In this document: in pieces, positions 20,578 to 24,609 of the stretch
Numbering within the stretch: the first letter of the stretch is position 1
Layout: every line of letters begins with the position of its first letter
IMG/VR virus record: IMGVR_UViG_2529293239_000010
Strand: one strand, 5' to 3'
From: a virus
Lineage: Duplodnaviria > Heunggongvirae > Uroviricota > Caudoviricetes
DNA: 49,854 nucleotides
Made by a program: the position numbers and the translations under genes
Notes under the pieces: generated by a model
What the model was told of the DNA's origin: nothing
The model's input: the letters and a program-made list of their open reading frames with translations, nothing else
The model's database searches: none

Positions 20578-21015
20578 ATGAACCGCGTACTGTGCGTGGT
20601 CATCATTGCCCTGCTGGTGGCCTGTGGTGCGCTTAGTCTGGGGCTGAATCATTACCGTGATAACGCCATAACCTACAAAGAGCAGCGCGATAAAGCCACA
20701 TCCACAATCGCTGATATGCAGAAGCGTCAACGTGACGTAGCAGAACTCGATGCCAGATATACAAAGGAGCTTGCTGATGCTAACGCGACTATCGAAAGCC
20801 TCCGTGCTGATGTTTCTGCTGGGCGTAAGCGCCTGCAAGTCGCCGCTACCTGTGCAAAGTCAACGACCGGAGCCAGCGGCATGGGCAATGGAGAAAGCCC
20901 AAGACTTACAGCAGATGCTGAACTCAATTATTACCGTCTCCGAAGTGGAATCGACAAGATAACCGCGCAGGTCAACTACCTGCAGGAGTACATCAGGACG
21001 CAGTGCTTAAAATAA
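20578..21015 (+). CDS. Rz: Rz i-spanin
   Basis: 145-aa ORF with N-terminal transmembrane anchor and coiled-coil-like periplasmic domain; contains an embedded +1-frame lipoprotein gene. Confidence 0.8.
   Translation: MNRVLCVVIIALLVACGALSLGLNHYRDNAITYKEQRDKATSTIADMQKRQRDVAELDARYTKELADANATIESLRADVSAGRKRLQVAATCAKSTTGASGMGNGESPRLTADAELNYYRLRSGIDKITAQVNYLQEYIRTQCLK
20777..20962 (+). CDS. Rz1: Rz1 o-spanin lipoprotein, embedded in Rz in the +1 frame
   Basis: AAGGAG Shine-Dalgarno 7 nt upstream of ATG 20777; signal peptide with lipobox LLGVSAC; proline-rich mature part. Confidence 0.7.
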   Translation: MLTRLSKASVLMFLLGVSACKSPLPVQSQRPEPAAWAMEKAQDLQQMLNSIITVSEVESTR

Positions 21016-21052: not shown

Positions 21053-21081
21053 AAAATGCCTCGCAGATGCGGGGCATTTTT
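21053..21081 (+). terminator. Hairpin terminator after the lysis cassette
   Basis: ATGCCTCGC...GCGGGGCAT stem followed by TTTTT. Confidence 0.45.
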
Positions 21082-21405
21082 GTACAGGTATTTCACCGCG
21101 CACCGCAGTGCACTCAACCACGTCGAACCAAACCCTTTGGAATGAGCCTTTGAGTAGTCAGTTAGTGCTGGTGAGCCTTGACGGGCTGATCTCCTATGCA
21201 GCAAAGGTTCATCTCAAAGTAAGGCGAACGCTATGACAAACCAAGATTCTATAGACCTATCTGATCTTCGTGGAATGGTCAGTTTTCCAGACAAAAGGTA
21301 ATCACCATAGTCGTATGGCTATGAATCTTGTTGCTGCAGATAAGCATTTTGTGAACCGCCCCGGGAATCCTGGAGACTAAACTCCCTGAGAAAGAGGTAA
21401 ACAGG

Positions 21406-21732
21406 ATGACTAAAAATACTCGTTTTTCCCCCGAAGTCCGTCAGAGGGCGATTCGTATGGTTCTGGAAAGTCAGGGCGAATATGACTCACAGTGGGCGGC
21501 AATTTGTTCCATTGCCCCAAAGATTGGCTGTACACCGGAGACTCTGCGTGTCTGGGTACGCCAGCATGAGCGGGATACCGGAGGCGGTGATGGCGGGCTC
21601 ACCACCGCTGAACGTCAGCGTCTGAAAGAGCTGGAACGTGAAAATCGTGAACTGCGCCGCAGTAACGATATCCTTCGCCAGGCTTCCGCTTATTTTGCGA
21701 AGGCGGAGTTCGACCGCCTCTGGAAAAAGTGA
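21406..21732 (+). CDS. IS629 transposase OrfA (HTH)
   Basis: 108-aa [24 protein letters not shown]... with leucine-zipper-like C-terminus, typical IS3-family OrfA. Confidence 0.85.
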
Positions 21733-22619
21733 TGCCACTGCTGGATAAGCTGCGTAAGCTGTACGGGGTCGGACCGGTATGCAGTGAACTACATATTGCC
21801 CCGTCAACGTATTACCACTGTCAGCAACAGCGACATCATCCTGATAAACGCAGTGCCCGTGCGCAGCGCGATGACTGGCTGAAGAAAGAGATACTGCGCG
21901 TATACGATGGGAATCATCAGGTATACGGTGTGCGTAAAGTCTGGCGTCAGTTGTTACGGGAAGGTATCAGAGTGGCCAGATGCACTGTGGCACGTCTCAT
22001 GGCGGTTATGGGACTTGCCGGTGTTCTCCGGGGTAAAAAGGTCCGTACGACCATCAGCCGGAAAGCCGTTGCCGCAGGCGACCGCGTAAACCGTCAGTTC
22101 GTGGCAGAACGACCTGACCAGCTGTGGGTGGCTGATTTTACTTACGTCAGCACATGGCAGGGCTTCGTCTATGTGGCGTTCATTATTGATGTGTTTGCCG
22201 GATACATCGTGGGGTGGCGGGTCTCATCGTCCATGGAAACGACATTCGTGCTGGATGCTCTGGAGCAGGCGTTATGGGCCCGTCGACCGTCCGGCACGGT
22301 CCATCACAGTGATAAAGGTTCTCAGTATGTATCGCTGGCCTACACACAGCGGCTTAAGGAAGCCGGATTACTGGCATCAACAGGAAGTACAGGCGACTCG
22401 TATGACAACGCGATGGCGGAGAGCATCAATGGTCTTTACAAAGCGGAGGTAATACACCGTAAGAGCTGGAAAAACCGTGCAGAAGTGGAACTGGCCACAC
22501 TCACGTGGGTGGACTGGTATAATAATCGACGATTGCTGGAAAGGCTGGGCCACATCCCTCCGGCAGAAGCAGAAAAAGCTTATTATGCTTCCATCGGAAA
22601 CGATGATCTGGCAGCCTGA
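21729..22619 (+). CDS. IS629 transposase OrfB (DDE catalytic domain), normally made as an OrfAB fusion by -1 frameshift
   Basis: 296-aa ORF overlapping orfA in the -1 frame; DDE integrase-core region (WVADFTYV..., HSDKGSQY..., [10 protein letters not shown]). Confidence 0.85.
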
Positions 22620-22744
22620 GTTCACAGATAAAACACTCTCCAGGAAACCCGGGGCGGTTCATTGTGATTGAAGTGGTCAAATCTCTCAAATGCAGTAAAA
22701 TGCAGTGCGCTATAATTCAATAACGGAGGGAGTAAGGAGAAGTC

Positions 22745-23365
22745 ATGAAAGATCAAGATGTTAGGTTCGCGGTGCATCATAAGCTTTTGAAAGAATCGCA
22801 TTTAGATCCAGACTGCCTTGTGGTCGATGAATTTTCCATATCCCTTGGCGCCAGTAGAGCAGACATTGCTGTAATAAATGGTGTTATACACGGGTACGAG
22901 CTCAAAAGTGAATATGACTCTTTGGAGCGTTTGCCTCTTCAAATCAAGCATTATTCTTCTGTAATGGACAAGGTTACTCTTGTCGTAGCTGAGAAACATC
23001 TTGAGGGAGCATTAAAGTTAATCCCAGGTTGGTGGGGCGTTAAAACGGTTTCTGTTGGGCCAAAAGGCGCCATTCTTATAAAGCACATGCGTGGAGAAAA
23101 GCTTAATCGAAACCATGACACATTGATGCTCGCTCAATTGCTTTGGAAAGATGAATGTATCGACGTACTTGAACGATGGGGCTATTCCAAAGGAATCAAA
23201 AGCAAGCCCCGATTTGAGTTATGGAATATTATTGCGGAAAATATTCCAATAGCGAATCTCAGGCTTGAAGTCAGAACAGCCTTAAAGAAACGCGTAGGCT
23301 GGAAAGTTAAGGCTTGGCAGGCTGAGTCTGCGCCAACCAATAAAGCTGTCTCACGACTAACGTAA
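22745..23365 (+). CDS. Cargo protein A (206 aa), unknown function, with PD-(D/E)xK-like nuclease motif
   Basis: Strong Shine-Dalgarno GGAGGGAGTAAGGAG and TATAAT box upstream; motif VVDEF...RADIAVINGVIHGYELKSE fits a restriction-endonuclease-like D...ExK core; AT-rich relative to flanking phage DNA. Confidence 0.6.
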   Translation: MKDQDVRFAVHHKLLKESHLDPDCLVVDEFSISLGASRADIAVINGVIHGYELKSEYDSLERLPLQIKHYSSVMDKVTLVVAEKHLEGALKLIPGWWGVKTVSVGPKGAILIKHMRGEKLNRNHDTLMLAQLLWKDECIDVLERWGYSKGIKSKPRFELWNIIAENIPIANLRLEVRTALKKRVGWKVKAWQAESAPTNKAVSRLT

Positions 23366-24374
23366 TATGGTGCGTATGTGCAACTTTACGCCATTCTTTA
23401 GAGCCGCCAGATTTGTTAGCGCCTAATGATCTTTGGTAAATGTAATCATCCCCCCAACTAAATTTGGAACCAAAGACTTGATACTCTGGCGAACTAACAA
23501 GGGTAGTACATAAGTTTTTAGTTTGGCCCCATCCATTTCCTTTAACTGCGGTACCTTTTACAAAGATCCATGAGGTATCGTTCGAATATCTCACTGAGAC
23601 ATACTGAGACATGAAGCGTGGGTCTACGCTCGTAATGGTAGAGCTAGCGGTGGGATAATCACTAAAACTTGGCGTTCTTCCATTGCTAAAATTCTGTACT
23701 ACGTACATCCAAAGATCGTATTCATGGCGCGGAATATGATGAACTTGATGTTGCGGTATCCCTGCCTGTGATGCTGGGTATGCGGTTGAAGATAAAATCA
23801 AGTTTCTCCACGGAGCTTGGCCTGATAATGTGTTGACCATGCTTAATGCTTGTTGTTTTAAACTATCAGTTGCGTTTTGAATATCTCCAAAATCAATGAT
23901 TACATCAATTAAACTAGGATGAATATTTAAGTGGTTAACCAGACTTGTGAATTGGTGCCATGTCTGGGGGGTGATAGATATAGCGAGCCCATTGATTAAG
24001 TTGCGTTGAACAGCATGTATATAGTTTGTTGAATATGCGGGAGAAACAACAGGGATAATTTCCTTACCATTTACTCTAGCATCTTGGATACACATATCTA
24101 GAGGATGATGGCGGCTCGAACCATGTTTATCTAAATATTTAACATCCAGCAAAACAGGACGATTGGCTTTCCAGGATGCCGCAAGGTTAATACCGAAGTC
24201 AGATAAGTAAGAACTCAAACTCTTCTTGTAGCATTCGTTTTCATAATCCCAGTCTATGTCTGGAATGGTAATGATCGGAGTAAAACCAGAGAGCGTAGTT
24301 TGATCTAAAAGCATCAGAGATTCATATTCAGCAGGCTTCCATTTCAGCTGTGGATAATATTGATGTTGACTCAT
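23307..24374 (-). CDS. Cargo protein B (355 aa), unknown function, convergent partner of cargo protein A
   Basis: AAGGAG Shine-Dalgarno upstream of the ATG at 24374; 3' end overlaps that of gene A by 59 bp; AT-rich; no motif I can assign. Confidence 0.6.
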   Translation of the reverse strand: MSQHQYYPQLKWKPAEYESLMLLDQTTLSGFTPIITIPDIDWDYENECYKKSLSSYLSDFGINLAASWKANRPVLLDVKYLDKHGSSRHHPLDMCIQDARVNGKEIIPVVSPAYSTNYIHAVQRNLINGLAISITPQTWHQFTSLVNHLNIHPSLIDVIIDFGDIQNATDSLKQQALSMVNTLSGQAPWRNLILSSTAYPASQAGIPQHQVHHIPRHEYDLWMYVVQNFSNGRTPSFSDYPTASSTITSVDPRFMSQYVSVRYSNDTSWIFVKGTAVKGNGWGQTKNLCTTLVSSPEYQVFGSKFSWGDDYIYQRSLGANKSGGSKEWRKVAHTHHITLVVRQLYWLAQTQPAKP

Positions 24375-24597
24375 TAAAACTCCTTAAAATCTTTACTTAT
24401 CCTAAGTATAGTGTTATGGCGTAACGCCAATTGTTTTTATACACTTGAAAACATTGGGAAAAGTTGAGCTATATCTAAATTTACAAAATTGGATGTTATA
24501 GAAATCGAGGTTTCAACTAGGCATGGAACTGCAAAATTTTTAATGCCTGCACGCGAAAGTCGTTGGCGGGTCCTTTCCGGTGATCCAGACCGTTACG

Positions 24598-24609
24598 GGG
24601 CGGCGACCT
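24598..24609. other. cosN cohesive-end site (GGGCGGCGACCT), lambda type
   Basis: Exact lambda 12-nt cohesive end sequence followed by lambda-like cosB and the Nu1 gene about 190 bp downstream. Confidence 0.85.

Follow-up and report, generated by a model that had tools for sequence, protein, structure and literature searches.

A gop-less, two-gene beta/cII cassette in a lambdoid prophage: a predicted RecB-like nuclease convergent with a predicted TIM-barrel protein

The stretch of DNA analysed here (the window) is the 49,854-nucleotide Caudoviricetes record IMGVR_UViG_2529293239_000010, which appears to be one whole lambdoid prophage. Between its lysis genes and its cos site lies a cassette of two convergent genes: gene A (22745..23365, + strand), encoding a 206 amino acid (aa) protein of the sce7726 / Phage_P4_cII family, and gene B (23307..24374, - strand), encoding a 355 aa protein of the Beta family (Pfam PF14350). 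The genes share an antiparallel 3' overlap of 59 bp (23307..23365), in which A residues 188-206 lie opposite the last 19 residues of B. A preliminary description had given the coordinates of both genes and of their overlap exactly, and had proposed that they form an undescribed defence or exclusion module. Judged by their family matches (2.3e-54 and 8.2e-56), A and B are genuine genes and not chance open reading frames (ORFs), and the cassette is almost certainly a member of the beta/cII family that lacks gop. A and B are homologues of cII and beta of the satellite P4, and RefSeq already names the products of the exact cassette 'sce7726 family protein' and 'beta family protein'. The cassette is hence no undescribed system, both families and a relative with three genes being already known and named.

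A matches NCBIfam sce7726_fam (NF033832) at 2.3e-54, scoring 184.1 bits where the cut-off is 70, as well as the PADLOC model 'cll' (4.3e-31) and phrog_984, and its homologues are assigned to PF26915 (Phage_P4_cII), a more recent Pfam family. BLASTP aligns it with P4 cII at 1e-18 and 27% identity, including the RAD...E-x-K-S core. The preliminary description had pointed to a D...ExK pattern in A, and its residues D40, E52 and K54 are invariant, together with E29, R38 and Q66, in 56 homologues with identities down to 40%; Y70 is conserved in at least 90% of them. AF2 models A with confidence (pLDDT 89.7), as an alpha/beta core of restriction-endonuclease-like fold at residues 1-120, a helical C-terminal part (126-182) that is possibly a SAP-like domain, and a disordered tail (192-206, pLDDT <50). 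In this model the second strand (37-44) carries D40 and the third (48-54) carries E52 and K54, so that the expected PD-(D/E)xK core and its active-site residues are both present, and Q66-x-x-x-Y70 on the following helix is presumably the RecB-family QxxxY motif. A is thus predicted from the model to be a RecB-like PD-(D/E)xK nuclease. A Pfam search of A matched no nuclease family, and its sequence profile gave chance matches (E>0.04) against solved structures. The best structural match of the model is the MmcB-like protein 3dnx, and one source labels an A homologue 'DNA repair protein MmcB-like'.

B had been described as having no assignable motif, but it belongs clearly to a known family. It matches Pfam Beta_protein (PF14350) at 8.2e-56 over profile positions 1-342 of 342, the PADLOC PD-Lambda-2_C models at 4.4e-32 and 2.2e-25, the PADLOC 'beta' model at 3.5e-10 and phrog_9159, and it aligns with P4 beta, which is also 355 aa long, at 3e-7 and 22% identity in BLASTP. 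The model of B is again confident (pLDDT 92.1), with alternating strands and helices in a TIM-barrel fold, and its sequence profile gave chance matches (E>0.04) against solved structures. Clustered at 50% identity, the Beta family (E<=1e-3) makes up 3757 groups. Of their 3757 representatives, the 150 best matches are all single-domain proteins, the full-length ones of about 350-420 aa, and among these 150 no domain fusion was found that could hint at function.

Seven positions of Beta (Y6, P33, P108, D161, P200, D239 and H336) are invariant in 73 diverse members including P4 beta, and ten others (E16, D77, R133, R216, Y240, R262, Y263, Q284, D309 and H335) reach 90% conservation or more. The conserved acidic, arginine and histidine residues look like a catalytic or ligand-binding site. 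Such an enzyme-like set would suit a restriction-modification-like system, in which B alters DNA or the nucleotide pool, either by base exchange as in DpdA/TGT or by phosphodiester chemistry as in GDPD/PLD, and A cuts unmodified DNA; convergent gene pairs are also frequent in restriction-modification systems. However, searches of Pfam, NCBIfam and PADLOC matched B to no methyltransferase or known DNA-modification family, and P4 Beta neutralises a small protein toxin (PMC9122126), which points to a role at the protein level. A restriction-modification-like system is therefore a decidedly improbable explanation of the pair.

The preliminary description had also suggested, with reservation, the sce7726/sce7725 family pair. 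This was right for A but not for B. The assignment of B to sce7725 was rejected, B having no NCBIfam match at E<=1, and none of ten diverse partner proteins matched sce7725 either. A genuine sce7725 protein, from an Arthrobacter plasmid, gave an hhalign probability of 0.26% against the Beta profile, and at four further plasmid sce7726 loci no adjoining sce7725 gene was found. The Arthrobacter sce7725 protein is 156 aa long and possibly shortened by an IS3-family element. At the N-terminus it has YHPYFRGKQFE...FIPIIEP, which resembles the N-terminal Beta motif YYPQLKWKPAE...TPIITIP. This stretch is the one part that aligns with the Beta profile, and not significantly so; sce7725 may be a very distant relative of Beta.

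Relatives of the cassette were collected by a scan with the A profile of one genome per species, which gave 80 loci, and by contig look-ups, which added 7 for a total of 87. A comparison of this kind had been proposed in the preliminary description, and the pair indeed recurs: 85 loci hold both genes, on plasmids and islands as well, with 76 distinct pairs among them. The 80 scanned loci are found in Proteobacteria, Firmicutes, Actinobacteria, Myxococcota, Chloroflexi, Elusimicrobiota and candidate-phyla-radiation bacteria, with one archaeon among them, a Candidatus Methanosuratincola genome bin (locus L074, 772-2428). The archaeal pair is convergent, overlaps by 44 bp, keeps the phase of its bacterial relatives, and shows the wide spread, or the mobility, of the module. 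A profile scan from the Beta side recovered close relatives alone.

The two genes are convergent in all 85 loci. Two of the 76 distinct pairs have a gap between the genes; in the other 74 the 3' ends overlap, over lengths that range from 4 to 110 bp and are most often 44, 41 or 56 bp. In 70 of the 74 overlapping pairs, over 21 different lengths, the length of the overlap equals 2 modulo 3, and RefSeq plasmid annotations independently give the same overlap. Because insertions and deletions inside the overlap must keep both frames, and the relative phase is fixed, the overlap has evidently been inherited continuously from a common ancestor. In the window it falls on the tail of A, which is disordered and not conserved. 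The idea that the overlap holds a bidirectional terminator or a structured RNA was rejected, as the region folds no better than shuffled sequences (z +1.3 to -0.4). P4 is an exception to the overlap, having a 27-bp spacer between beta and cII that includes an annotated cII terminator; mutation of this terminator reportedly leads to a temperature-sensitive phenotype, attributed to impaired beta expression, which would show directly that transcription of cII is able to interfere with beta. The E. coli Rac-type phage Rac-SA53 (locus L002, 3276-6555) carries a second, diverged beta/cII pair (30%/54% identical) with a 41-bp overlap. This pair sits between hok/mok and IS1, another case of an insertion sequence (IS) landing next to the cassette.

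A pair that is found on plasmids, integrative elements and prophages across phyla, and whose genes are physically locked together by a persistent overlap, might be a selfish stabilisation (addiction) module, the loss of which kills the cell, such that it retains the prophage, plasmid or island rather than stopping phages. Gop and Beta do act as a toxin-antitoxin in P4 (PMC9122126). Nevertheless, three-gene relatives of the pair do confer phage resistance, convergent transcription is atypical of type II toxin-antitoxin operons and nothing indicates that A is toxic or B labile, all of which makes addiction an unlikely account of the cassette. Addiction and abortive infection are, moreover, not mutually exclusive.

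Two validated systems contain relatives of the pair. The P4 gop-beta-cII system protects against lambda and P1 (Rousset et al. 2022, PMC9122126), and the same paper cites Ghisotti et al. 1990 for the toxicity of Gop without Beta; orf184, a phage accessory gene, triggers cell death via gop-beta-cII (bioRxiv 10.1101/2023.04.06.535777). PD-lambda-2 (Vassallo et al. 2022, PMC9519451) has three genes: one HigB-like, one encoding an Xre-type helix-turn-helix (HTH) peptidase that is toxic alone, and a third that is 'related to a P4 phage antitoxin' and is needed for defence but not for neutralisation of the toxin. The 'nuclease plus partner' of the preliminary description is only half of the known picture, and the window lacks the components responsible for toxicity in the validated relatives, Gop and PD-lambda-2B. 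A phmmer search with P4 Gop of all reading frames of the window and of the 87 related loci gave no match at E<=10, and the 224 bp from the start of B (24374) to cos hold no ORF of more than 52 aa, leaving no room for gop. Neither a HigB-like nor an HTH-peptidase ORF lies beside the cassette in the window, its neighbours being the transposase genes of an IS3-family element, with Rz beyond them, and Nu1.

Absence of a third gene is the commoner state, a tightly linked gene upstream of Beta being absent in 45 and present in 31 of the 76 distinct loci. The third gene that recurs is a fusion of Xre-HTH and Peptidase_M78, a neighbour in 21-22 of 69 loci, which matches PADLOC PD-Lambda-2_B at 2e-84 to 7e-75. 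On an Agrobacterium plasmid there are four genes, of which a 162-aa gene, a PD-lambda-2B-like gene and beta follow in that order and all converge on the sce7726 gene. The four-gene version is found at loci L042, L043 and L055, at about 26 other alphaproteobacterial loci and at L136 (3986-7346). No HigB-like gene was recognised in the alphaproteobacterial loci: the small upstream ORFs have no match in Pfam or PADLOC, and the 162-aa gene that opens these operons matches the candidate model PDC-M63A alone, at about 1e-8. These loci suggest that natural PD-lambda-2-type loci include a cII-like gene that was omitted from the published three-gene description. As Beta and cII are present throughout while gop or the HTH-peptidase varies, both validated systems build on an unvarying Beta/cII pair; beta and cII look like a conserved core to which toxins are added on.

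The cassette is foreign to the prophage in base composition, as its visible AT-richness had suggested. Its GC content is 41% against 52.8% in the remainder of the window, GC at third codon positions (GC3) is 0.40 and 0.36 in A and B against 0.62 in the terminase gene, and the lowest-GC 1630-bp segment of the entire 49.9 kb is centred on it. Of 5426 complete E. coli genomes, 126 (about 2%) contain the cassette in full. Wherever the identical cassette occurs in prophage contigs of IMG/VR, Rz (79-100% identical) is on one side of it and packaging genes are on the other, and the latter differ widely, Nu1 being 36-100% and the large terminase subunit (TerL) 57-99% identical. This arrangement is typical of morons that keep to one fixed hotspot in the mosaic genomes of lambdoid phages. 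In Acinetobacter and Pasteurella prophages (loci L004-L009, 5001-6621) the pair is directly downstream of an S24 cI-like repressor gene, with Beta on the strand of the repressor, which suggests that Beta is co-expressed with the repressor in these lysogens. In lambda, rexAB occupy the position downstream of the repressor gene and bor occupies the Rz-cos slot, and lysogen-expressed cargo acting against other phages would be the expected logic for the cassette too. Other settings include plasmids, integrative elements, and islands beside integrases and reverse transcriptase, DUF3800, Hypoth_Ymh, caspase and AAA_21 genes.

The same observations bear on the idea that the pair serves the phage's own DNA metabolism, with an MmcB-resembling nuclease and its partner acting in recombination, repair or packaging near cos. 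The MmcB-like structural match of A, the MmcB-like label of its homologue and the adjacency of the pair to cos in both the window and P4 fit such a role. It is nonetheless very unlikely: gop, beta and cII are described as non-essential in P4 (PMC9122126), the cassette is confined to about 2% of E. coli genomes, the terminases that accompany one and the same cassette differ greatly, the pair is elsewhere found beside a repressor gene or on plasmids and islands without phage genes nearby, and its base composition is foreign to the prophage.

The flanks of the cassette agree with the Rz-cos slot named in the preliminary description, which had the position right and overlooked a 1310-bp IS3-family (IS629-like) element between Rz and A (21352-22661). 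Upstream lies Rz (PF03245, 20578-21015), and the ORF nested within it (20750-20962), with a lipoprotein-box-like LLGVSAC, is read as Rz1. Downstream, a lambda-type cos sequence, GGGCGGCGACCT, at about 24598-24609 is followed by Nu1 (PF07471, 24787-25332) and then by the large terminase subunit gene. The IS629-like element lies 81 bp upstream of the ATG of A, contains orfA (21406-21732) and orfB (21729-22619), and is flanked by a TTG target duplication (21349-21351 and 22662-22664). The empty, IS-free site is present in E. coli S1-CAM-01-A. An IS at the Rz/A junction was found in no complete E. coli genome of the collection, and among close DNA matches in the phage collection the IS end alone was matched.

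An insertion just upstream of A, the presence of a third, toxic component in every experimentally validated relative, and PADLOC matches that, with single-gene models run, are limited to single-gene models would all be compatible with an incomplete or inert remnant, a hitch-hiking cargo left without its gop or HigB/HTH-peptidase partner. Against this, both ORFs are intact and keep all of the family-invariant residues, the cassette recurs in 129 E. coli records with conservation of 99% or more, and the two genes stand alone in 45/76 distinct loci from many phyla. Furthermore, the persistence of the overlap and its phase from phylum to phylum speaks for purifying selection on the pair itself, and an inert remnant is accordingly improbable.

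Each gene has its own ribosome-binding site, as had been noted before: a Shine-Dalgarno AAGGAG, read from the sequence, lies 5 nt before the ATG of A (22734..22739, + strand) and of B (24380..24385, - strand). The region upstream of A (22662..22744, + strand) is the 83 bp from the IS end to the ATG and contains candidate promoter elements on the + strand, TGGTCA-16-TAAAAT at 22674-22701 and a perfect TATAAT at 22711-22716. A direct tandem repeat, AAATGCAGT then AAAATGCAGT (22687-22706), lies 5' of this TATAAT and may be a regulator-binding site. The region upstream of B (24375..24597, - strand) reaches cos and must hold the B promoter; a consensus scan of it found no minus-strand promoter. Between the 5' end of B and cos there is a hairpin, TGGCGTAACGCCA (24417-24429), followed on the + strand by a T-run, and together with ATTGTTTTT it forms a terminator-like structure on that strand (24417-24440). 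This hairpin could stop A-initiated transcripts that have crossed all of B antisense, or could act as an operator of the B promoter. Late transcription of the prophage would be sense to A and antisense to B, and could affect their expression.

Several further features of the window were recorded. Just past Rz, outside the scanned range, a GC-rich hairpin with a T-run, aaaatgcctcgcagatgcggggcatttttgt (21055-21083), was spotted by eye; it resembles an intrinsic terminator and may be bidirectional. ARAGORN predicts a cluster of three tRNAs at 15884-16133 (Met-CAT, Arg-TCG and Arg-TCT), and in a related E. coli prophage (L001) the first tRNA of its own cluster is annotated as Ile. Clusters of tRNA genes downstream of Q are common in lambdoid and Stx-type prophages. 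At the start of the window, a 376-aa ORF (1-1131, - strand) may encode the integrase.

The data establish the family identity of the cassette, its folds and catalytic residues at the level of prediction, its gene architecture, the autonomy of the pair and its context. The defence or exclusion role suggested in the preliminary description is plausible from homology and context, and an anti-phage role is probable on the strength of the validated relatives and of the slot that the cassette occupies. The reading preferred here, with confidence a little above even, is that the cassette is a two-gene, gop-less beta/cII module, carried as an AT-rich foreign moron, which would act as a prophage exclusion or abortive-infection system by coupling a nuclease effector to a Beta controller or sensor. 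In the lysogen both genes would be expressed, each from its own promoter, and Beta would keep nuclease A silent or would sense infection. A controller or sensor role is suggested for Beta because it neutralises Gop in P4 and is needed for PD-lambda-2 defence, although control of A as its nuclease effector is put forward only tentatively. On infection by a heterologous phage, nuclease A would be released and phage and/or host DNA degraded, with superinfection exclusion or abortive infection as the outcome. Since neither mRNA can stop before entering the partner gene, the two genes are likely to be coupled by antisense RNA or transcriptional interference, and such coupling would fix the A:B ratio.

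Several points weigh against a Beta-controlled nuclease module of this kind. Both validated relatives have an extra toxic part, Gop or the HTH-peptidase PD-lambda-2B, that is missing here, and the accessible text of PMC9122126 does not report an individual contribution of cII to P4 defence. No experimental test of any two-gene beta/cII pair was found in the searched literature, nor any paper on the mechanism of Beta or cII. The conserved residues of Beta fit an active enzyme no less well than they do a passive inhibitor or sensor. Meanwhile, the promoter consensus scan found 4 sites where 4.9 are expected in shuffled sequence, which is not above chance, and the IS629-like insertion upstream of A may have altered the expression of A in this prophage.

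A bolder proposal, which is rather doubtful as a whole, is that beta and cII, and not gop and beta, are the ancient autonomous core of a widespread immune family to which Gop, HigB-like and HTH-peptidase proteins are lineage-specific additions. The RecB-like nuclease would then be under the control of a small molecule or a feature of nucleic acid, with Beta as the enzyme that produces, destroys or senses it, and the overlap would be an antisense or transcription-collision switch that sets the nuclease:Beta ratio. If this were true, infection or the late transcription of the prophage could throw the switch. Whatever the mechanism, the validated E. coli systems P4 gop-beta-cII and PD-lambda-2 both use a Beta protein, and cII has been mechanistically ignored, while the Beta/cII pair travels alone in most lineages and its cII keeps an intact predicted nuclease active site. 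The searched literature does not describe the two-gene form, standing alone, as the most frequent and ancestral state, nor does it assign cII to the nucleases or Beta to the TIM barrels, or mention the phase-locked convergent overlap that spans phyla. Attention thereby moves from the Gop toxin to the core of nuclease and TIM barrel, and the cassette offers a minimal two-gene construct for dissecting the mechanism. The practical consequence is smaller: the exact cassette is found in about 2% of complete E. coli genomes, and the PADLOC models that were run recognise its genes one by one.

The cassette can be compared with several known systems. Unlike a type II toxin-antitoxin operon, its genes are on opposite strands and do not form one unit co-transcribed from an autoregulated promoter, and unlike the modification partner of a type II restriction-modification system, B lacks a methyltransferase match and models as a TIM barrel. 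A shares its fold and the positions of the catalytic D, E-x-K and Q-x-x-x-Y with RecB-family and MmcB-like nucleases (3dnx, Can2 and NucS), but its identity to them is at most 18%, it has an extra helical C-terminal domain and its gene is always partnered with a Beta gene. In the sce7725/sce7726 pair (NF033831 / NF033832), A is a clear sce7726 member whereas B has no sce7725 match, and the genes of one example, on the Arthrobacter plasmid (L095, 2303-3668), are co-directional where those of the window are convergent. The slots resemble those of lambda cargo, namely that of bor between Rz and cos in the window and that of rexAB downstream of the repressor in the Acinetobacter and Pasteurella prophages; a predicted nuclease and a TIM barrel have, however, no sequence or fold kinship with Bor, RexA or RexB.

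PD-lambda-2 and P4 are two further systems for comparison. B fits the PD-Lambda-2_C models (4.4e-32) better than the P4 'beta' model, and in alphaproteobacteria genes like PD-lambda-2B and 2C are followed by a convergent cII-like gene. The window differs in lacking the HigB-like and HTH-peptidase genes and in having a predicted cII-like nuclease, which the published version of PD-lambda-2 does not list (PMC9519451). P4 gop-beta-cII (DefenseFinder Rst_gop_beta_cll, PADLOC gop_beta_cll) is recorded as gop (133 aa, + strand), beta (355 aa, + strand) and cII (264 aa, - strand, labelled sce7726 family), adjoining the P4 cos end. It differs from the cassette in having gop upstream of and co-transcribed with beta, in a longer cII (264 aa against 206 aa for A), in a 27-bp spacing with an annotated terminator in place of the 59-bp overlap, and in a satellite rather than a lambdoid prophage as host, and identity is just 22% for beta and 27% for cII. 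Both protein families are nevertheless common to the two, beta and cII are convergent in each, and each lies in a cargo hotspot adjoining the cos of a temperate element.

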